Of a stretch of 64,000 nucleotides of DNA, positions 9,299 to 49,981 are shown one piece after another. Origin of the DNA: a virus; IMG/VR virus record IMGVR_UViG_3300040801_002290, positions 96,001 through 160,000 of that record; one strand, 5' to 3'. The notes beneath the pieces were generated by a model. It worked only from the letters and a program-made list of their open reading frames with translations, was not told the DNA's origin and searched no databases. How positions within the stretch are numbered: position 1 is the first letter of the stretch; every line of letters begins with the position of its first letter. A program made the translations under genes and the position numbers.

Positions 9299-10714
9299 TT
9301 AGATTACGTTTTCCTGCGCTACGTTAACGATTAGGAAGTTAAATTCCGGGGCGCGTGAGAACAAGGAGGATACGTGGCGGATAGCGAAGTCGCGGTTTAG
9401 GGTCTGGGGTAGCGGAACCTGCTCAAGCGGAATCCACTGTGCAAGCATGGTGGTCATAAGGTCTACACCAACTACGAATCCAGTTCCGGGGACCTTGCGG
9501 TAAGTAAAGGTACCGTAAGCTGAAACAAGGGTCTCGTGTCCGTCGTCAACTACGTTGACAGTTCCACCAGCGTATACAGGAACCTTCTTGAGGAACTTGA
9601 AGTCGCCGCCAGCGTCGGAACGGTAAACAATTAGCCACTTGGCACCGGCAGGAACAGTTGCTACAGCAAGCTGAATCTGCTGTCCAGCAGTTGGGGTTAC
9701 GGGTGCGCCAGCTTCTACGGCTTCGGACTCTCCGTTGAAGTTAGCTGCCTTTACCATGTAGTTATACTCGATTGCCTCAAGACCGGCGTTTCCAGCAGCG
9801 TTGGCCTGAGCGGTCAAGGTTACTGCGGAAGGTGCGGCTGGACGTGCGAATTCTCCACCAGTGTTACCGAAGCCCTGGTCAGTGAACTTGTGCCAGTCAC
9901 CAAGGAAACGGTCGGTTACTAGCTCGGTCTCACCGTAAGCAGAGATGTAGGTCTGGGCATCGGTTCCGAGTACGCCAGCTACGCGGTCTGCCTGGGTGGT
10001 ACGAGCAATCTGGTAGAAGCTCTGCTGTAGGTTAATCTTGTCAACAGGTGACATCATAACTACGTTCGGGCGAGCAAGTCCCTGGGTTAGGTAGACCTTG
10101 TTCTCTGCGGCCCATAGAGCGTTTAGAGAAAGCGGGCGTCCACCCAAGTCAGTTACGTTCTGCGGGGCACCGCGCTTGACGATGTTCTCAAGGCCGTCGA
10201 ACTGTAGGTTCTGCGGGCTGGAGAAATCGGTTGAACCGAAGCGGCGGTCTCCGTGGAAGAGTAGGTACTCGGTTTCTTCCATGACGGCAACCATCTTTTC
10301 GGTGCGGGCGGTCTGCTCGGCGGTCTGAACACCGGCACGGGTGGTGGCAACAGCCAATTCCGTGATGGTGATGCGGTGTCCGAGTAGGGTAGGTAGGGTG
10401 CGCCTACGGGCTACTTCTACTTCGACGGTACGAGGAACGCCACCGTCGCGGTATGCGGCGTAACCAATCTTGTCCTGACGGCTGGTTACGACGTTGTACT
10501 CATGCTCGTAAGCAGTGGCCTGAATCTTCTGGAGCCTGTCGTAGAACGGGGTTTCCAAAATGTTTAGACGCTCTAGTTCACCTTCTAGGTCCTGACGCTC
10601 CAAGCTCTGGGCAACCTGGCTGGTTCCGTCAATGGCCTTAAGAACATCTAGGGGCAGATGCTCTAGGTAATCTAGGTGGTCTGCGTAATTTCTCTGAACG
10701 ACTTCTTTAGACAT
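9299..10714 (-). CDS. Major capsid protein precursor
   Basis: 471 aa between protease and neck genes; DVLK|A...LERQDLE and EYLLFHGD...QFDGL resemble K/A511-type capsids; C-ending codon bias. Confidence 0.92.
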   Translation of the reverse strand: MSKEVVQRNYADHLDYLEHLPLDVLKAIDGTSQVAQSLERQDLEGELERLNILETPFYDRLQKIQATAYEHEYNVVTSRQDKIGYAAYRDGGVPRTVEVEVARRRTLPTLLGHRITITELAVATTRAGVQTAEQTARTEKMVAVMEETEYLLFHGDRRFGSTDFSSPQNLQFDGLENIVKRGAPQNVTDLGGRPLSLNALWAAENKVYLTQGLARPNVVMMSPVDKINLQQSFYQIARTTQADRVAGVLGTDAQTYISAYGETELVTDRFLGDWHKFTDQGFGNTGGEFARPAAPSAVTLTAQANAAGNAGLEAIEYNYMVKAANFNGESEAVEAGAPVTPTAGQQIQLAVATVPAGAKWLIVYRSDAGGDFKFLKKVPVYAGGTVNVVDDGHETLVSAYGTFTYRKVPGTGFVVGVDLMTTMLAQWIPLEQVPLPQTLNRDFAIRHVSSLFSRAPEFNFLIVNVAQENVI

Positions 10715-10736: not shown

Positions 10737-12395
10737 TTATAACTTGCCTTTATCAGCCATCTTGACGAAGTGCTTGAATTCTGGCTCTGAAAGGTTTAGG
10801 GTTTTTTGGGCCTCTTCCACAATGCGGGCGCGTTGCTGAGCATGTGCCCCAGTGTGTCCAATGATTGAGCGGTACTTTTCAGTGAATGACTTAAGTACCG
10901 TCTTGTCGTACTGTCTCTCTTCCCCGTCCTCAGTCACAGCCTTGATAACATCAAGCTTGGCTACCTCTGCGGCTTCTTCACCAGTTACAGAAGCACCTGG
11001 ATGTACTATTCTAGGCGATTCTTTTGAAGATGTCACGCTTTTGGTAACGATAGTGCTTTCTTCGGACAGCTTAGTGACAATACTTGCTGCGATTCTCTCT
11101 TCCATGTCGGCAAAGCCGCTCTGGAAAATAGACTTTAGGGCCTCGCCAAACTGAGTTGCAGAGTCTTCTGAAAGACTTACGGTTAGAGAGTCGAGGGATT
11201 CCTTAATGACCGACTTGATTATATCGGTTGGGGGTTCCGTAGTTACTTGCTCTTCGACAGGAGCTTCTTCCATCATTTCAGTAGCCTGAGAGGAGTCCGT
11301 TAGCTGCATGACCAAATCAATAAGGGTATCAACCTTATCCAATAGCATCTGAACGGAGGCATCCCCGTCTCCTGCCATTGCGTCAACTTCCTGACCTTCC
11401 TCAGAAGTTACTAGGCTGTCTAGCAAACCGCCAGCATCCTCTTCTCCTGCCTCAGCAGCACCTAGTTCTGCCATTTCCTCGGCTCCACCCTCTTCCATAG
11501 CGCCTTCTTCCTCACCAGCGAATGGTGCCTCAGCAGGGGCTTCTTCCATGGGTGCGCCTTCGGCTTCTGGAGCGGCTCCCTGAGCCTCTTCCTCTTCCAC
11601 CGGAGGGGCAGCTTTTAGTACAACTTTAACATCTTCTGCCATAGCGTTTCTAATTTCCTCCTTAACGTTTACATACGATTCGAAAACGTGAGTGGTTCCG
11701 TCCCCACCCTGAACGGTTGATTTTATAACCAACCTATCGTTTTCTTGGTCAAACAGCACGGAATCTGGTGCGATTGTGTGGTACTGAACTTCTTTTGTCT
11801 CCTCTTCATCGACCAGCATACTCTTTAGCACAGACGCCCAAGTCTTTGTGAATGGGTTTACGGGCTCCGGGGTCATAGACACTTCGTAAAGAAGAAGCTC
11901 TGGCAAATAGGTAACGTACTTACCCTTTTTGACATCGTACTCCCTACGAGGACTACCAAGATATTTAGCACCGATGGAGAGGCCGATTTGGTCGGCAAAG
12001 CTTGTGTCCTTGTTAGTAAGGAACTCCTCCCACATCTTTCTTGCCATCGGGTGAGACTTATTGAGAATTCCCTTGATGTATAAACCTTCTGGTCTAATCT
12101 GTGCATCAAGGGGCTTTCCAATTGGGGTCTTTAGACTTAGAATTTCGTCCTTGGAAAATCCGTACTTGCCCAACCAGTCATCATTCTTCTTAGCGTAATC
12201 GTGGTCGAAGTATATCTTTCCGTTGGACTTGAAAAACTCTATGGTCTGGGAGAAACTTTCTGGGTATACAACCTCACCGAATAAATCTACATCGGCGGTA
12301 GAAGCAATGCCTTCAAAGACCCAAGGCTCTTCTTCATTAGCTGAAAAAGATTTGGTAATGTCTACGGGCATGTAAAAATGAAAATTTCTATCCAT
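10737..12395 (-). CDS. Prohead protease fused to acidic scaffold
   Basis: First ~190 aa HK97-type protease (EGIAST..VDLFGEVV, YFDHD, PIG, GLSIG, EVSMTPEPVNP); rest E/A-rich with many xKS sites. Confidence 0.88.
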   Translation of the reverse strand: MDRNFHFYMPVDITKSFSANEEEPWVFEGIASTADVDLFGEVVYPESFSQTIEFFKSNGKIYFDHDYAKKNDDWLGKYGFSKDEILSLKTPIGKPLDAQIRPEGLYIKGILNKSHPMARKMWEEFLTNKDTSFADQIGLSIGAKYLGSPRREYDVKKGKYVTYLPELLLYEVSMTPEPVNPFTKTWASVLKSMLVDEEETKEVQYHTIAPDSVLFDQENDRLVIKSTVQGGDGTTHVFESYVNVKEEIRNAMAEDVKVVLKAAPPVEEEEAQGAAPEAEGAPMEEAPAEAPFAGEEEGAMEEGGAEEMAELGAAEAGEEDAGGLLDSLVTSEEGQEVDAMAGDGDASVQMLLDKVDTLIDLVMQLTDSSQATEMMEEAPVEEQVTTEPPTDIIKSVIKESLDSLTVSLSEDSATQFGEALKSIFQSGFADMEERIAASIVTKLSEESTIVTKSVTSSKESPRIVHPGASVTGEEAAEVAKLDVIKAVTEDGEERQYDKTVLKSFTEKYRSIIGHTGAHAQQRARIVEEAQKTLNLSEPEFKHFVKMADKGKL

Positions 12396-41824: not shown

Positions 41825-41853
41825 ATTATATCCTTAAGGTCAGGAGGTTTCAA
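41825..41853 (-). promoter_or_regulatory. Promoter TTGAAA-N17-TATAAT heading the fibre block
   Basis: Near-consensus; -35 overlaps the end of the CCA gene. Confidence 0.65.
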
Positions 41854-43573
41854 TTATTTTTCGTATGAAGTCCTCGCCCTTGTCCCAAAGTTGCTCCATT
41901 TCCATACCGTTTGCTTGGGCAAAAGCTATGAGAGTGTTCTTGTCTTGAGTGCTTAGGCTACTGGTATAAGAAACTGCGTTTTGGTATTGGGCCGAAAAAA
42001 GTCTAGTAGCATAGAGAATGCCACCAGCTTCATCCTCAAATAACCCCTCCATCTGAGCTTCAAATAGGGTTTTTAGAACCTCTGAATAATGCAGTCCACC
42101 GGTTTTATACTCTTCCGGTAGGTAACCATCCTGAGCCAAGCTCATCAGGTGACGGCCAAGTACAACCGGCTTTATTCTCTCTTCGGATAGGGAAAGCTGA
42201 TTTGCCATGAACAGCAACTCTTTAGCCTTCTCAGGTACTCCCTTTTCTAATGGAGGGCGACCAGAATGGTCTGCTTCTATGACTCTAACCAACATCTCAA
42301 CATTAGCTGGGTGAAGCCTTAGAGAAAGCCTTCTAACAGCCCGAGGAGTTATGTCGTTTAGGTGAGACATATGCTCAGAAACTAGAGGCCAAACCTTAGC
42401 GATTACGGTCTCCTGAACACCAATTGAGCGAAGAAAAGACTTGGTTGGGTCAACCCCGGCCTGTGCATGTCCCGGAGCATGGTACTCTCCGTTTTCTACA
42501 ATTGTGGTTGTAGGTTTTCCGAAATCGTGACATAGGGCTGCCATTAGTAGAACAAACCTATCCTCACCCTGTAGTCCGTCTCTTTCGGCAATTAGAGCGG
42601 CTTCATCAACTACATGAAGAGTATGCTCCCAAACATCTCCCTCTGGATGCCACTTCTCTTCCTGCTTTACTCCTATGAGTTCTTTTATTTCTGGATAAAA
42701 GTCAATCCATCCTGTCTGTCTAAGAACCTTTAATCCAGCACTGGGTTTTTTGCCTTTTAAAGCCCATTTCTGCCATTCAGTAAAAATTCTTTCTTTTGCA
42801 ATGGTTGGATATTCGTGCTTAATGTCGTTGGCTAGTTTCGCCGTGGAGTCATCCATAGTCATGTCAAACCTAGCGGCAAACTGCATACCACGAAGAACAC
42901 GTAGAGGGTCTTCCGAGAATTTGTCAGAGATATGACGAAGCCTTCTCTGCTGCAAGTCCTTCATTCCCCCGAAAAAGTCCAGAATTTTGCCTTCCGGAGT
43001 CATGGAGAGACCGTTAATTGTGTAGTCTCTACGTGAGGTTGCTTCCTCGGCAGACATCGTATGGTCTGGCTCAACTACGAACCCTCTGTGACCTTCACCC
43101 TCTTTGTTTTCTCTTCTGGGCAAAGAAAAGTCATAGTCACCATTCTGAGTGGTAAGTTTTATAACCCCGAAACTAGCTCCAACTACATCCACCTTTCCGT
43201 AGTTAGAAAGAATCTTTTGAAGCTCTTCTGACGGGACATTATAAACCTCTATGTCAACATCCTTATTCTCCGAGCCCATGTACCTGTCTCTCACTGCTCC
43301 ACCCACAAACAACATGTCGCCGCCAAGTTGTCTAATGTCATTTGCGATATGGTAAACCTCTTGGTCAACCTGTAGAGGCTCGTGTGTCTCAGTTTCCAGG
43401 TTGCTACTCTCTAGTGTCCAACCGGGAATAAGTCCGGTGGAAACGTCGGCAAATCTGTAAGGACCCCCGGAAAATTCACCTGGGGTCTTCACAACCTCGC
43501 CTTTTTCGGAGCTTATTCTAAGCACATAGCCAGACGGGACTACGAATCCTTTTAACGAATCTATTCTGTTCAT
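41840..43573 (-). CDS. cca: CCA-adding tRNA nucleotidyltransferase with HD domain
   Basis: VGGAVRD...DVDIE, RRDYTIN, EDPLRVLR...FAARF, ERI..EW, HPEGDVWEHT, ALCHDFGK; about 75-aa N-terminal extension. CCA versus poly(A) specificity not proven. Confidence 0.88.
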   Translation of the reverse strand: MNRIDSLKGFVVPSGYVLRISSEKGEVVKTPGEFSGGPYRFADVSTGLIPGWTLESSNLETETHEPLQVDQEVYHIANDIRQLGGDMLFVGGAVRDRYMGSENKDVDIEVYNVPSEELQKILSNYGKVDVVGASFGVIKLTTQNGDYDFSLPRRENKEGEGHRGFVVEPDHTMSAEEATSRRDYTINGLSMTPEGKILDFFGGMKDLQQRRLRHISDKFSEDPLRVLRGMQFAARFDMTMDDSTAKLANDIKHEYPTIAKERIFTEWQKWALKGKKPSAGLKVLRQTGWIDFYPEIKELIGVKQEEKWHPEGDVWEHTLHVVDEAALIAERDGLQGEDRFVLLMAALCHDFGKPTTTIVENGEYHAPGHAQAGVDPTKSFLRSIGVQETVIAKVWPLVSEHMSHLNDITPRAVRRLSLRLHPANVEMLVRVIEADHSGRPPLEKGVPEKAKELLFMANQLSLSEERIKPVVLGRHLMSLAQDGYLPEEYKTGGLHYSEVLKTLFEAQMEGLFEDEAGGILYATRLFSAQYQNAVSYTSSLSTQDKNTLIAFAQANGMEMEQLWDKGEDFIRKIIETS

Positions 43574-43636: not shown

Positions 43637-44410
43637 CTAGTCTTTTTGTTTATCTCCATTGTCTTCATCAGTTTCAACTGCTTTAGGATTAACTCCTCCA
43701 GTTCGTATTTGTTTGCTGGCTGCATTAGTAACACCTCCCTCTAAATCCTGTCTTTCTAGTGCCTGAGCAACACCACCGGCTGCCGTCAACGCCCTAAGTA
43801 TATCGTATGTAAGGTAGTAATTTCCATCTTTTTCTACTATGGAAGTAGAGTCTAAAGCATATGGTGGAACTTCCGATGGATTAACGGGGTCTGCTAGATT
43901 CGTGAAAGAAACCGCCTTCAAAACATCTTTCTCGGAGAACTCCTTCATCATCTTCTTGGCAGTTACATTAACCTTGAATCCCAGGTAAATATCCTTAAGC
44001 AACTCTTCGTTTTCTTCCAACGCGGCTTTAAAAAGATACTTTTCTGTTATCCCCCCGAACAAAATCATTACCATAGCGTGCATGTAGAAGAAATCCCCGG
44101 TCTTTTTTAGAAGAGAAACAGCCTCTTCCACCTTATCCAAATCTACTGCTAGAGTCCATGGGGTATCATCGTAGATATTCCATGTAGGTTCATATTCTTT
44201 CCCGTTTATAGAATTATCCAGGTGCTTAAGGAGAGTTACGTATTTTGCGTCTACGGTACCAATAGAGCCGTGCTTAAATCCCGCTTCGGCTCTAAGAAAT
44301 TCGCTAACAGAGTTTGTCAACTCCCCGGTGAACTCCATATTCATGTCCCCTACGAAACTTGAGACCCACTCATTTAATTTGTCTGTACAGTAAGTCCAAA
44401 TTCTTATCAT
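43637..44410 (-). CDS. Portal-linked protein carrying a copy of the capsid N-terminal arm
   Basis: DILRALTAAGGVAQALERQDLEG versus capsid DVLKAIDGTSQVAQSLERQDLEG. Confidence 0.75.
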   Translation of the reverse strand: MIRIWTYCTDKLNEWVSSFVGDMNMEFTGELTNSVSEFLRAEAGFKHGSIGTVDAKYVTLLKHLDNSINGKEYEPTWNIYDDTPWTLAVDLDKVEEAVSLLKKTGDFFYMHAMVMILFGGITEKYLFKAALEENEELLKDIYLGFKVNVTAKKMMKEFSEKDVLKAVSFTNLADPVNPSEVPPYALDSTSIVEKDGNYYLTYDILRALTAAGGVAQALERQDLEGGVTNAASKQIRTGGVNPKAVETDEDNGDKQKD

Positions 44411-47400
44411 ATAGTCATTCTCCTTTGAAGCTCATCTGCTGTAAGTAGGTTACCATGGGACATGGTTCTTCCTGGTGCCTGAATACTCTGTACTTCATAG
44501 TTCATACTCAATTCATGCACGGCTACTGAATGGTCTTTTGAGCCGTTAGGCATATTTAGGACCATTGTTGGGTGAATATTCATTTTTCCCTTGTTAGACT
44601 TCCACATTTGAGTTACAAGTTTATTAAAGTTGTCGGAGTTTCCGTGGTGTGGAATGTTTCCTCCAGAAGACTCCATTTTACCTTCTCCTGGAAAAATATC
44701 AGTACCAGAGGGAGACTGTTTTATGACCATGTAATCAACTGTACCATTCTGAGCGTAATCCATCTTTCCAAATGTGTAAACTTCTCCACCTTTACCCGTC
44801 CAAGAGAGTCCAACCACTCCGGAGACAGAGCTTTCTCGTATGTCAGAACCAGAAGAAGATTCAAGATGTTGAAGAAGCATTGGAACTGCGCTTAGAGACT
44901 CAAGTGCGTGACCGATTGTACTTACAGAGCCAAGTCGAAGATTTTGAGAGACATAAGTTGACAAAACCTCTCCGTACTCGGGACTTAGTTTTTTAATTCT
45001 GTTTTCTACAACTGCTCGATAGTTGTTTTGTAGCTTTTCAAACTCACCCCGCCCAATTTCCCCTCTTCTATCCATATCATAAGCACGCTTGAGGGAGGTC
45101 GCAAGGGAAGAAAGGGTATACCTCTCAGAATTCTCCACAGGGCTCTCAGATAAAAGCACACCTCTTGAGGTAGCCGCGTTAGCCACTTCCCCCGCCGAAA
45201 AATTCTCCATGATTCTGGAGGCCCCACGGAGAGACTCTGTAGTCTCGGTGAGGGACTTCTTATCGAACAGGTTGGTTGACTGAACGTCTCTCATCATCTC
45301 TAGAGCCTCTTCTTCACTGTCGAGAATGGTGAGCCCGTCATCCCCTACAATTGTGGAAGCACGGGAGTGAATGTTTGCAGTGAGCATTGAGTGTGCCGGG
45401 ACAGCACTCTCATCTTGAGACATGAATCGAACGAGAGTCATATCATCAATTATCTCTCCCGTATCACCGTTTTTTCTAATGTAATTAGCTAAAACAGCTT
45501 CTCTAAGTGAGGCATCCCAGACAAAGTTATCCTCACTGTCCTGGTTGGGAAGAAACCTGGCCCTGTTCAAAGCTTCAGCAAAAAGAGCCTGAGACGCACT
45601 ATGGAAGGAGCCAGTTACACTGTTATACCCATCAACCGCATCCATCAGCACAGTTGAAAATAACCTAGCAATCTTGGGAGAGAGAGTCATTCCAACGTTA
45701 AATCTACCCGCTGCTGATTGAACCGCGTGTACAACAAGAGCAGAAAAGCCTCTTGCAGCATATTCGCTGAGTCTGGAAGTAGAAGAATTATTGAAGGCGG
45801 AATTCAAATGCCCTTGGAAAATTCCTGCTCTTTCAACTAGTCTTTGAGTAGCAGACTCGGCAAGGTCTAAAGGCACAGATAAGTCGGAGACCATAAAATC
45901 TCTGATTTTATCAGAAAATTCTGGAGTATTCATGTAGTCTATCGGAGACATTCCTGTTCTATTATTTCCTACCAATGCTGTTATTCTGCTCGCTAATTTA
46001 GGTGCAATATGCTCTTTAAAGATGGCCCCATATTGAGCATTACTGTCTCGATAGTAGTCCGTGAAAACTTTGCCCACAGAAGGAATACTGGTCCCCCTGG
46101 AACCAGACAAAACCATGGTTGTAAGAATCTTGGACGGGTCCTTTTTAAACATAGAAGTTATTTCAGAGAAAATCTCATTCTGTAGCTTAACAGAGAACTC
46201 TTCCTGTCGCTTTCCTCCACGAAGAATGAGTGGGGACTCGACTATCTTATTCTTTAAAACCTCACGAATATGTTCCATGTGGTCGGGAGTAATATCACCG
46301 GTTTTTGGTGCCAAGGAATCAAAGATTCCGGTGAAGGATAGATTCGTATCTCTGAATACAAAGATTTTGTCTAACCTATCTAGAATACCGCGAGTCATTT
46401 CAGCCCCGGAATCATTAGTCATACCGAGTTCAAGAGCCATTTGAACAACGAAGTTTCCTGTTTCTACGGAGTCTATGATGTCCCTTACGGCCTTTATCTT
46501 AGAGATATCCGAGGATATTTTCTTTATCTCGGCAGAGGTACCGGAAGAATTCTGAGCCAAAATTAAAGACTTCTCAAGGCGAAGCAAAAGCTCCTGATGC
46601 TTTAGCTTTTTCTTCTGCTCCGCGACCGTGGCGGCAGACGGTGGAGACATGTACTCTGCCATTCTAATTCCTGCTGCCAAAGCTGCTTTTCGCTCTGCTT
46701 CACGAGAGTCTGTTGGAATCTTGCTAGAATCGAGTATGTCATAAAAGGAGTCATAAGCCTCCGTCTGATTCTTACCAAAAGCCGGGAAGAGTTTTGCAAT
46801 GTTAATGCTTGCCTGAGAGTCCTTATTCCACCCGCCACGAATACCTTCAAGAAGTTTTGCCGCTTCCTGATTACCATTCTTACTAGCAACAAACAGAGCG
46901 GTTACCAGCGCCTTAGGGTGAATGTCCTTTCTGTCTGGCTTGTTTGCATCTCTTACACCGGGCCTAAACTTAATCTTAAATTTAGCCTTTATTTGCCCTG
47001 GAAAACTGATTCCTTTCTTGTCTTCCTGAGTTGGCTCGTGTACAATCTTTCCCTCTGCCTCTTTTAGCAAAGGCTCTAGTTCCTCTATCAAGCTCTGCTC
47101 CACGTTTCCACCGCTTACCTCGTGAAGTAAGTCAACTCTGTGTGCCCAAGCGTCAATCAACTCGTTAAAGGTCTCCGTTACTAGAGCTTCCTCATCGTCA
47201 ATTCTAGCTAAGGACTCTGGGTCATTTCCGTAAGCAGCCCTTTGCATGTCGTAATACTGTTGGTAGTAAGCAGCAACCTTCAAAACATCCCCGTAGGTGT
47301 AATCTAGACCCATGTACTGCTTCAACTGACTGGGATTAAAGCCTTCGGGAATTTCTTCATCGCTTGAAACTGAGTCATCGAGTTCTGGCTCTTCTTCCTC

Positions 47401-47745
47401 GCCAACGACTTCCTCTATCTTCCACCCTCGACTGGGTGCATTCTGCATGAAGGAATCCCAGTCGCTTTCTCCAGCGGCAGTGGGAACCATATGTGGGGCT
47501 CTATATTCCTTGTTTTTGTTTGGGCTATAGACTACATACCCCCTTTTTACGGGAATGGCTTTTAGTGCTTCCAATGCCAAATCTTGGTAAAGCTCGACCC
47601 CGATTCCCATTTTTTGGAGGTAGTCATAGGAATCCAAAGCAGACATATTCCCCTCTGCGTATCCAGAAGGGACTGTCATGCTTTTAAACGTGGTTAGTTT
47701 GTACTTAGAGTTCAAGGTACTCACCAACTTTTTCCACCTGAGCAT
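44407..47745 (-). CDS. Large portal-linked helical protein, putative ejection/core protein
   Basis: About 1100 aa; overlaps portal end; alternative TTG start behind SD GGTGA gives MNSKYKLTTFKS. Confidence 0.65.
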   Translation of the reverse strand: MLRWKKLVSTLNSKYKLTTFKSMTVPSGYAEGNMSALDSYDYLQKMGIGVELYQDLALEALKAIPVKRGYVVYSPNKNKEYRAPHMVPTAAGESDWDSFMQNAPSRGWKIEEVVGEEEEPELDDSVSSDEEIPEGFNPSQLKQYMGLDYTYGDVLKVAAYYQQYYDMQRAAYGNDPESLARIDDEEALVTETFNELIDAWAHRVDLLHEVSGGNVEQSLIEELEPLLKEAEGKIVHEPTQEDKKGISFPGQIKAKFKIKFRPGVRDANKPDRKDIHPKALVTALFVASKNGNQEAAKLLEGIRGGWNKDSQASINIAKLFPAFGKNQTEAYDSFYDILDSSKIPTDSREAERKAALAAGIRMAEYMSPPSAATVAEQKKKLKHQELLLRLEKSLILAQNSSGTSAEIKKISSDISKIKAVRDIIDSVETGNFVVQMALELGMTNDSGAEMTRGILDRLDKIFVFRDTNLSFTGIFDSLAPKTGDITPDHMEHIREVLKNKIVESPLILRGGKRQEEFSVKLQNEIFSEITSMFKKDPSKILTTMVLSGSRGTSIPSVGKVFTDYYRDSNAQYGAIFKEHIAPKLASRITALVGNNRTGMSPIDYMNTPEFSDKIRDFMVSDLSVPLDLAESATQRLVERAGIFQGHLNSAFNNSSTSRLSEYAARGFSALVVHAVQSAAGRFNVGMTLSPKIARLFSTVLMDAVDGYNSVTGSFHSASQALFAEALNRARFLPNQDSEDNFVWDASLREAVLANYIRKNGDTGEIIDDMTLVRFMSQDESAVPAHSMLTANIHSRASTIVGDDGLTILDSEEEALEMMRDVQSTNLFDKKSLTETTESLRGASRIMENFSAGEVANAATSRGVLLSESPVENSERYTLSSLATSLKRAYDMDRRGEIGRGEFEKLQNNYRAVVENRIKKLSPEYGEVLSTYVSQNLRLGSVSTIGHALESLSAVPMLLQHLESSSGSDIRESSVSGVVGLSWTGKGGEVYTFGKMDYAQNGTVDYMVIKQSPSGTDIFPGEGKMESSGGNIPHHGNSDNFNKLVTQMWKSNKGKMNIHPTMVLNMPNGSKDHSVAVHELSMNYEVQSIQAPGRTMSHGNLLTADELQRRMTI

Positions 47746-49981
47746 CCGTCAGATAGTTAGGTTGGAATTTGTAGAAATCCTCATATAGATAATTCTGTAG
47801 CGGAGCATCGAGGGACTTGTAAATAGCCCGCTCAATAGCTTCTTCCATTTGCATTGGATTTCCGATTACCTCAGAAATCTTCTGTCTCTTTTCATCAGAA
47901 AGGGTTTCTTTGATTCCCTTCGTAATAGATTTGATTAATGGCTCTTCACCATTCTCATCAACGATTACCTGTCCACTACCTACGTAGCGGGAGAAGATGA
48001 TTGGGTCTGCCGAATCAACATCAACAGACTTGTGAATTGTTATACCCGCGTTTTTGGAGAACATCTCGTAAGAATCAATAGGGGTTCTTAGGAACTGTCC
48101 ACCTGGGTAATTGTTTATGTCGTAAAGCTTCAACATGTCGTGATAGTTGGATTCATCTTCATACATGCTAGAGAATCCCTTAATCATCAACTCATGCGCC
48201 TCGTCCTCGTTCGCAGCATTCATGGAAAAGAAACGAGAAGACTTGAGGTTTGAAGGAGAGCCGACAGGAGAGGGACCTTGCGGCGGTTGCGGAGGCCCCC
48301 CTGCCATCGGGTTGTCCCCACCCATAGGCCCACCTGGGTTTTCGGGAGACGGCATTCCAGGAAGTGGTGGAAGGTTTCCGAGGTTGGGCATACCGGGCAT
48401 ACCGCCGCCCTCCTCTTCCTCGGGTTTCCAATTTCTGAGTCCCTGTAGAGGGGTATTTCCCCAAGGTACTGGGTGAAGACCCTCTTGGGCTCGATATTGG
48501 TTAATAGTTAGTACACCGGAGACAATCTTTTGCTGACTAATCATCCAGCGTTCGCGTTCTTTTTCTACATCGTCGTCTTCGAACCAAAGTCGGAGGTCAT
48601 TCTCTTCACGAAGCTCTGCAAGAACCTCTGTGGTTAGGTACTCAGAGATAACGCGCATGATGGTCTCTAGGCCCTTACTCTTTGTCATTTCGGCCTGAGT
48701 CTGAGACGTGCTTCGGTTAACGTCGGAAATAATTCCTACGTCCTGAGGAGAAACCTGATATACAGCGCAGATTTTACGAGTTAGGTATTCTGCCAACTCT
48801 CTAAACTGCATGTCCTTTCTCTTACCCTTGAAATCAATCCAGGAGACCTTACCGCCTGAAATAATCGGGACTTGAGTGTAGTCACCCATCATAATGGACT
48901 GTAGGTGACGCTGAATGGACTCTAGCTGCTCTTGGTCAATTTGTGAAATCATACCTTCGCGGGAAGGTGGGGGTTCAATAGAGATAAAGCCTTCGGGAAT
49001 GGAGCCACCCTTACGGTAGTAATCCAGATTTCCCTTGTCAATGAAGATGTCAGAAAGGACAGTGGTGTAAAGAGTCTCCATTGGAGAGAAGCCATAACCA
49101 AAGTACTTGATATCTGCCATCGGATAAGCGGAAAGAATGATTACGTCTTCCTGTCTTAGATAAACCTGTGGAGAGCCGTTAATTACCTGAACAAAGGCTT
49201 TCGTGGGGTCAACAAAACCGTACTCGTTGATTAGGGGTCGAACAGTGGTCCCGTCAACAGGCATCAATCCTTTTAGCTTGCCGTCTTCGTCCCTGATTTT
49301 AATAAGAATTCCACGGTCAATAACCAACATGTCGTTAAGAATCTTCTTAAGCATGTTTTCCCATGTCTTAGTTTGGGTAAACCACGGGTCAGGCGAAGAC
49401 AAGAGCTTTTTAATCTCTTTTATGTCACGAGTGCGCTTTCTGTAAAATTCCTCGTGCTTCTTCTGTAGAAACTTTATGGTTGAGTGTTCCAGGGAAGTAA
49501 ACTCTTCTGGCATCGCCTCGTAAAGCTCTTTTTTATCAGCTATGTAACCTTTTGGGTCCAGCCTGGTGTAAACCTTGATTAGAAATTCAACCTCATGCTC
49601 ATCGAAGGCTGGGTGATGTTCAATGTTATAGACACTGTATTCCAAAATGCTGGTTTGCTTGGGCGGCTCATCCTTGTCCTTTGGAATAACGGTAAAGGGA
49701 AGCTTGGCCACCTGGTGAGAGCGTAGCGTAAGAATGGACTTTACAACGGTGCTGTTGTAAGCAAGCATTCTTTGAGTCGGGAAATTGACTCGTCCAGGAT
49801 AGGTCTTACCAACGATATCGTTTCTGTAATAATCACTTGAAACGAAAACGCCTTCGCTACCGTGGTCTCTAGCCCCGGCCTGACCCACTCCTGCGATGCT
49901 TAAAGAGGGTTTTTGATTTTGAGAACGGGCCGAGGTTGTTCTTATTCGCCTCTTAGCCCCATTAATATCAATTTCTGCCAT
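47705..49981 (-). CDS. Portal protein with Pro/Gly linker and C-terminal extension
   Basis: RDEDGKLKGLMPVDGTTV, YGFSPMET, GSIPEG, KDMQFRE...RKICAVYQVSP, LTINQYR..EGL.P. Confidence 0.9.
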   Translation of the reverse strand: MAEIDINGAKRRIRTTSARSQNQKPSLSIAGVGQAGARDHGSEGVFVSSDYYRNDIVGKTYPGRVNFPTQRMLAYNSTVVKSILTLRSHQVAKLPFTVIPKDKDEPPKQTSILEYSVYNIEHHPAFDEHEVEFLIKVYTRLDPKGYIADKKELYEAMPEEFTSLEHSTIKFLQKKHEEFYRKRTRDIKEIKKLLSSPDPWFTQTKTWENMLKKILNDMLVIDRGILIKIRDEDGKLKGLMPVDGTTVRPLINEYGFVDPTKAFVQVINGSPQVYLRQEDVIILSAYPMADIKYFGYGFSPMETLYTTVLSDIFIDKGNLDYYRKGGSIPEGFISIEPPPSREGMISQIDQEQLESIQRHLQSIMMGDYTQVPIISGGKVSWIDFKGKRKDMQFRELAEYLTRKICAVYQVSPQDVGIISDVNRSTSQTQAEMTKSKGLETIMRVISEYLTTEVLAELREENDLRLWFEDDDVEKERERWMISQQKIVSGVLTINQYRAQEGLHPVPWGNTPLQGLRNWKPEEEEGGGMPGMPNLGNLPPLPGMPSPENPGGPMGGDNPMAGGPPQPPQGPSPVGSPSNLKSSRFFSMNAANEDEAHELMIKGFSSMYEDESNYHDMLKLYDINNYPGGQFLRTPIDSYEMFSKNAGITIHKSVDVDSADPIIFSRYVGSGQVIVDENGEEPLIKSITKGIKETLSDEKRQKISEVIGNPMQMEEAIERAIYKSLDAPLQNYLYEDFYKFQPNYLTDAQVEKVGEYLEL

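Follow-up and report, generated by a model that had tools for sequence, protein, structure and literature searches.

Encapsulin cargo-loading peptides and the C-terminal tail of the HK97 protease dock cargo inside HK97-fold shells. These peptides are short and C-terminal, and they are not copies of the shell protein's own N-arm. In the phages T4 and P1, short linear signals, namely the CTS of T4 IPIII as well as the 30 N-terminal residues of P1 DarB, send non-structural proteins into the prohead, and the T4 prohead protease removes the targeting signal (PMC9024508). The T4 enzyme cuts after Glu in the sequence I/LxE (PMC12991175). Head-loading signals of phages are known, and the few that have been characterized follow no obvious logic.

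In the 194-kb phage genome that contains the window (the 64-kb stretch of DNA analyzed here), such a signal apparently copies the N-terminus of the major capsid protein (MCP). The candidate signal is carried by an accessory protein of 257 amino acids and shares with the signals of IPIII and DarB the proposed nature of a short linear head-targeting element. However, those signals are N-terminal and are not reported as capsid copies in PMC9024508, whereas the segment described here lies near the C-terminus and imitates the MCP. It also departs from a T4-type CTS, which is an N-terminal signal of about 10 residues with I/LxE, used together with a gp21-type protease, in that the protease of this phage is of the HK97 type and the putative sites follow Lys. 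Compared with the docking peptides of encapsulins and the HK97 protease, it differs in its resemblance to the N-arm of the shell protein. The closest known counterpart is a copy borne by the prohead proteases of Herelleviridae, for which we found no published description in the limited literature searched. In both cases, the MCP maturation site (K↓S or K↓A) and N-arm residues are copied onto a non-capsid head protein, the MCPs are of one structural lineage (Z 30 to SPO1), and the copy starts at a K/R↓small-residue site and runs into the mature N-arm. The carriers differ: in Herelleviridae the protease itself bears a copy of 25-45 residues, whereas here the copy comprises about 27 residues, the protease is fused to a scaffold and lacks it, and the carrier has an unknown fold or, in certain phages, is a free mini-protein.

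Genome context of the accessory protein

Judged by the head genes, the nearest relatives of the phage are the Thermus phages phiYS40 and TMA (identity of 51% for the MCP and 49% for the portal protein). The genes and segments considered below are:

9299..10714, minus strand: MCP, 471 aa, HK97 fold of the SPO1/phi812 type (Pfam SU10_MCP 3e-15; phrog_752 2e-64)
10580..10660, minus strand: MCP residues 19-45, comprising the putative maturation site DVLK26↓A27 and the presumed first 19 residues of the mature N-arm
10737..12395, minus strand: prohead protease fused to a scaffold-like region, 552 aa (phrog_32465 3e-21; phrog_1028, head maturation protease, 2.5e-10)
43637..44410, minus strand: gene of the 257-aa accessory protein; its ATG and the stop of the preceding 1112-aa gene overlap by 4 nt
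43640..43735, minus strand: charged, disordered C-terminal tail of the 257-aa protein, residues 226-257 (pLDDT 33-41)
43736..43816, minus strand: look-alike of the capsid N-terminus, residues 199-225 of the 257-aa protein, with DILR (P4-P1-like), then A207, then the invariant AAGG.AQALERQDLEG
43913..43927, minus strand: upstream DVLK165↓A166, a candidate protease site between the N-terminal domain and the motif-bearing tail
43931..44410, minus strand: helical N-terminal domain (N-domain) of the 257-aa protein, residues 1-160
44407-47745, minus strand: 1112-aa gene between the portal gene and the 257-aa gene, in the same orientation, without Pfam or PHROG family
47705-49981, minus strand: portal gene (Pfam Phage_portal 1e-28; phrog_37955 4e-150)

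The 257-aa gene is the second gene downstream of the portal gene, and its product has neither a Pfam or PHROG family match nor a protease domain. The order of portal gene, gene of about 1000-1100 aa, 257-aa homologue and CCA enzyme is kept in the relatives L006-L011 and L041, and the order of portal gene, 741-aa gene and 257-aa homologue is kept in L020. The CCA enzyme is a tRNA nucleotidyltransferase (CCA-adding type) with an HD domain, encoded directly downstream of the 257-aa gene (41840-43573, minus strand), and its placement within an otherwise structural gene block is retained in the relatives.

A selected copy of the capsid N-terminal region

A BLASTP comparison of the two proteins places residues 199-225 of the accessory protein opposite residues 19-45 of the MCP (15/27 identical, pair E 2e-6), and no other part of the 257-aa protein matches the MCP. 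DILR206↓A207 is paired with DVLK26↓A27, and the alignment extends to residue 225, which corresponds to MCP residue 45. Within this stretch, the core VAQ.LERQDLEG is identical at 11 of 12 residues, and LERQDLEG is absent from every other six-frame ORF of the window. The initial annotation of this locus had arrived at the same count for the core and had called the two genes otherwise dissimilar, which agrees with the absence of any BLASTP match beyond the 27 residues. The positions it had given for the two segments were accurate to within a few bases (residues 203-225 at 43736-43804 and MCP residues 23-45 at 10580-10648, both on the minus strand); it had also correctly described the gene as the second one 3' of the portal gene, the motifs as 33 kb apart, and a further DVLKA in the same protein, which we find at residues 162-166, 41 residues upstream of the motif.

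An HMM built from 69 MCP N-termini alone, run on the 1938 ORFs of the whole genome, retrieved the 257-aa ORF (E 1.2e-9) as the sole other match, the next E being 1.3, and conversely an HMM built from the 257-aa family alone matched the MCP in the same genome (E 2.4e-8). At the DNA level, the two cores are identical at 23 of 36 nucleotides and in 3 of 12 codons. The likeness is maintained at the protein level, because 11 of the 12 core residues but just these 3 codons are identical, and a recent DNA duplication or gene conversion was rejected on the same nucleotide and codon counts. The mimicry is a real, selected copy of the capsid N-terminal region, far beyond what chance would produce. A general cleavage motif common to many head proteins, as in phiKZ, was likewise rejected, since only two proteins in the genome carry the segment; the protease-scaffold does not contain it (motif HMM E>8).

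The MCP and its putative maturation site

The MCP belongs to the HK97-fold lineage of SPO1 and phi812 (Herelleviridae type). Its AF2 model matched SPO1 chain 9vel_C with Z 30.4 (372 residues aligned, rmsd 3.7) and phi812 5lii with Z 23.5, and a profile match to Gp6.1 was obtained at 1e-11. The structural core that it has in common with SPO1 and phi812 begins at residue 48, just past the motif. Among its structural neighbours are shells with a bound targeting peptide or an encapsidated protease (7s2t, 3qpr).

K26, R40 and L43 are invariant in 45 MCPs with 46-89% identity, and conservation amounts to 34% in residues 1-20 vs 73% in residues 21-46. The SPO1 MCP is 468 residues long and reads K23↓A24 at the equivalent position; 445 residues are modelled in chain 9vel_B, which equals 468 minus 23. 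Given the invariance of K26, the weak conservation of the propeptide and the fit of the SPO1 count, the MCP is probably cut after K26, and the motif would then represent the first ~19 residues of the mature N-arm, as had been supposed when the similarity was first noticed. By the same count, the mature N-arm of SPO1 appears to be ordered in the shell from its first residue. Cleavage after Glu, either as LE↓G or at a phiKZ-like small-x-E site, was considered and dropped, since every Glu site has exceptions in the MCP family, whereas K26 is invariant and the SPO1 count fits K↓A.

Conservation and split genes in the 257-aa family

The 257-aa family has 11 close members (23-75% identity), all of which contain the block AAGG.AQALERQDLE without change. 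A motif profile search among 1.84 billion proteins yielded 41 representative clusters with a near invariant block, nearly all of them proteins of 240-300 aa that carry the motif near the C-terminus, ahead of a charged tail. Identity to the window protein averages 81% within the motif vs 27-34% elsewhere in the family. According to a manual count, the residue before the invariant Ala (P1) is K or R in 25 of 40 representatives, L in 11 and N or Q in 4. Since P1 is K or R in 25 of 40 representatives only, the conserved property would be binding and not cleavage at 206↓207. The C-terminal tail is basic in 23 of the 40 representatives, acidic in 7 and near neutral in 10. The upstream site shows the strict four-residue pattern in 4 of the 11 close members; in an alignment read by eye, about 10 of 11 members have K followed by A, S or G at this place.

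AF2 models the N-domain (residues 1-160) with confidence, block means of pLDDT being mostly 85-96 and 72 in one block. The motif is predicted as two short helices (201-210 and 214-224), across which pLDDT drops from ~73 to <50, a pattern typical of a segment that folds on binding. Searches for fold relatives of the N-domain gave no Foldseek match at E<=0.001 in PDB or BFVD, a best Z of 4.5 in VIA, where the matches were unrelated bundles of helices, bromodomains and Cas12-type proteins among them, and TM values of at most 0.29 in the ESM Atlas.

Three relatives encode the family as two overlapping ORFs in different frames (L038:981-1644, L040:5499-6174 and L041:5502-6114). An N-domain ORF of 172-175 aa is followed by a mini-ORF of 37-57 aa with its own Shine-Dalgarno sequence and ATG, and the mini-ORF product consists in all three phages of little beyond an acidic tail and the capsid-like motif. 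In place of the Arg of LERQ, which is otherwise invariant, these mini-proteins have A, T or E. The N-domain ORF terminates at profile position 165-166, so the split point coincides with the likely protease site, as the window protein reads DVLK↓A at 165↓166. A programmed frameshift joining the two ORFs seems unlikely, given that every mini-ORF is equipped with a separate ATG and Shine-Dalgarno site. In L040, the portal-to-CCA gene order is interrupted by additional genes, among them an IS605-type transposase; the IS605 OrfB/TnpB-type (Cas12f-like) gene (L040:4203-5393) is encoded on the opposite strand and is flanked by the large portal-proximal gene and the N-domain ORF.

The protease-scaffold fusion

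The 552-aa protein carries an HK97-type (S78/U35) prohead protease domain in residues 1-195, with FDHD and GLSIGA and with H65 and S140 invariant; Pfam gave no match for this protein. A conserved 55-residue extension (196-250) follows the domain. The protein contains six hydrophobic-K↓S/A sites, four of them with an invariant or near-invariant Lys (191, 225, 485 and 502). In 36 sequences, K191 and K485 are invariant and S192, K225, S226 and K502 are near invariant, and the conserved site at 191 marks the end of the protease domain. These are probably self-processing sites that dismantle the scaffold.

Identity is 74% in the MCP core, 71% in the protease domain and 40-41% in the scaffold C-terminus, compared with 81% in the motif. 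The shell or the protease is favored over the scaffold as partner of the motif, because the rate of change of the motif fits the MCP core and the protease domain but not the scaffold part. BLAST detected no homology of the scaffold C-terminus with Herelleviridae scaffolds (E>1) and a marginal one with phiYS40 (E 0.02).

The same copy on other carriers

In Team1 (Kayvirus), LP-124 (A511-like), SP-10 and SPO1, the prohead protease has a capsid copy right after the protease domain, in which K↓S (K↓T in SP-10) and the 25-45 residues after it correspond to the K↓A or K↓S and the N-arm of the MCP. Local scores are 111-115 in SP-10, Team1, LP-124 and SPO1, and a weaker score of 58 was obtained for Deep Blue. 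The initial annotation had mentioned a capsid-like segment in the protease of phage K, and indeed both the protease and the MCP of the Kayvirus Team1 read KSF.TG, then after 11 residues ALR; its remark that the mimic of the present phage sits on a protein separate from the protease is equally in line with the absence of a copy from the protease-scaffold. In phiYS40, a weaker copy is found at residues 268-289 of YS40_168, a protein unrelated to the 257-aa family. The 257-aa family profile detected no N-domain homologue in phiYS40, and no YS40_168 homologue was detectable in the genome of the window phage. The copy is portable, being found in three lineages on three unrelated carriers.

Discussion

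We tentatively favor the interpretation that the capsid-N-terminus module is a portable label for head incorporation and processing. The module would consist of the MCP maturation site (hydrophobic-K/R↓A) and the first ~19 residues of the mature N-arm, and during prohead assembly it would be taken up by a slowly evolving partner of the real MCP N-terminus, for which the inner face of the MCP shell is our first choice and the protease domain the second. The carrier would thereby be incorporated into the prohead beside the protease-scaffold, and the protease would cut K165↓A166 and, where P1 is K or R, also 206↓207, which would separate the helical N-domain from a short peptide made up of the motif and the charged tail. 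In Herelleviridae, the protease, which is not fused to the scaffold, would label itself with the copy; in the present phage and in phiYS40, the protease fused to the scaffold would go without the label and an accessory protein would carry it instead. A label of this kind would account for the occurrence of the copy on the protease when the scaffold is unfused and on an accessory protein when it is fused. Cleavage and incorporation of the carrier and the identity of the partner are steps that we infer, beside the observed mimicry, its selection and portability and the conserved K sites.

In favor of a label, the motif is the sole strongly conserved part of the 257-aa family, and the gene sits by the portal gene and overlaps the stop of the preceding gene. 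Against it, cleavage at 206↓207 is not universal, given K or R at P1 in 25 of 40 representatives only, the mini-proteins of the split sub-clade have lost the Arg of LERQ, and a finished lattice has all its N-arm sites occupied by MCP arms. The initial annotation had proposed that the motif docks in the N-arm groove of the capsid and either supplies an arm missing at the portal vertex or tethers cargo to the shell. Of this proposal, the true copy of the capsid N-terminus stands, with a parallel in the Herelleviridae proteases, but simple tethering of cargo faces two counter-arguments: the N-domain is set apart from the motif by a likely protease site, K165↓A166, and the split sub-clade has no covalent bond between these parts at all, which also speaks against a simple tag on cargo. 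Comparison of the mimic with its own MCP in five genome pairs revealed no pattern of co-variation at the small residue preceding LE (S/A, S/A, S/T, G/G and, for the Thermus phage, S/A). A single complex prediction with MCP residues 47-471, protease residues 1-200 and motif residues 196-235 gave an ipSAE of 0.00, which speaks neither for nor against binding.

Instead of serving as a label, the motif peptide, freed by processing or made as a mini-protein, might stay in the virion as a spare capsid arm that fills N-arm sites of the shell without a natural arm, for example in the hexamers bordering the portal, where five penton subunits are missing, or it might keep such sites free in the prohead for the later entry of the real arms. 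We regard this as unlikely. The N-arm of SPO1, apparently ordered from its first mature residue (445 modelled), would imply a defined docking site, mini-proteins of little but the motif would suit a self-sufficient structural peptide, the 257-aa gene is close to the portal gene, and the motif changes as slowly as the MCP core; however, no result puts the motif peptide at the portal vertex, the Herelleviridae copy sits on a protease, an enzyme normally cleared from heads, and the highly variable tails, basic or acidic, are unlike a precise structural patch. Rather improbable, too, is a shared substrate determinant, in which the protease reads an extended P' segment and the 257-aa protein is a substrate or is tethered to an exosite of the enzyme without contact to the shell. 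The R and M sites of herpesvirus assemblin, which share a consensus, are a precedent, the similarity starts at P4-P1 of the presumed site in all three lineages, and the protease domain is conserved as strongly as the motif. Yet about 38% of the representatives lack K or R at P1 while the P' block is unchanged, known prohead proteases require far fewer than 20 to 40 conserved P' residues, and the six K↓S/A-type sites of the protease-scaffold have no such P' block.

The slow change of the motif also bears on a role of the scaffold. In the procapsids of P22, T7 and 80alpha, the MCP N-arm docks the scaffold C-terminus, a principle established in other phages. The copy would allow the scaffold part of the protease-scaffold to bring the protein in, and the motif is acidic and the scaffold C-terminus basic. 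We nevertheless doubt that such docking explains the copy, because the scaffold region, at 40-41% identity, changes much faster than the motif and shows no detectable conservation with Herelleviridae scaffolds and a marginal one with phiYS40, whereas the motif core is conserved. A pseudo-substrate regulator, with the motif peptide controlling the timing of maturation by occupying the protease or the MCP N-terminus, is very improbable: variants with L, N or Q at P1, which would not be cleavable, retain a perfect P' block, and free-standing mini-ORFs occur, but most members retain K or R at P1, and we know of no precedent for such a regulator.

If the label interpretation is correct, it would explain how the proteases that carry the copy, including those of therapeutic Staphylococcus and Listeria phages, enter the prohead. 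It would also provide a sequence rule to spot packaged proteins in uncultured phages and, for phage-host systems in the laboratory, a simple way of tagging cargo to be loaded into such capsids. Should the peptide instead be a spare arm, it would represent a new class of vertex or lattice patch derived from a copied part of the capsid protein.

In the MCP of the Bacteroides phage SJC03 (L017:2958-5952), a K↓A site precedes an N-arm of this type, but the neighbouring protease-like ORF contains no clear capsid copy (score 40); in this lineage, the label may be located elsewhere or be absent. In the relative L020 (13383-14780), a 465-aa homologue of YS40_168, in which the motif was not seen, occurs together with a 248-aa motif-bearing member of the 257-aa family, while in phiYS40 the motif is on YS40_168 and the family is not detectable; the label appears to have passed from one carrier to another.
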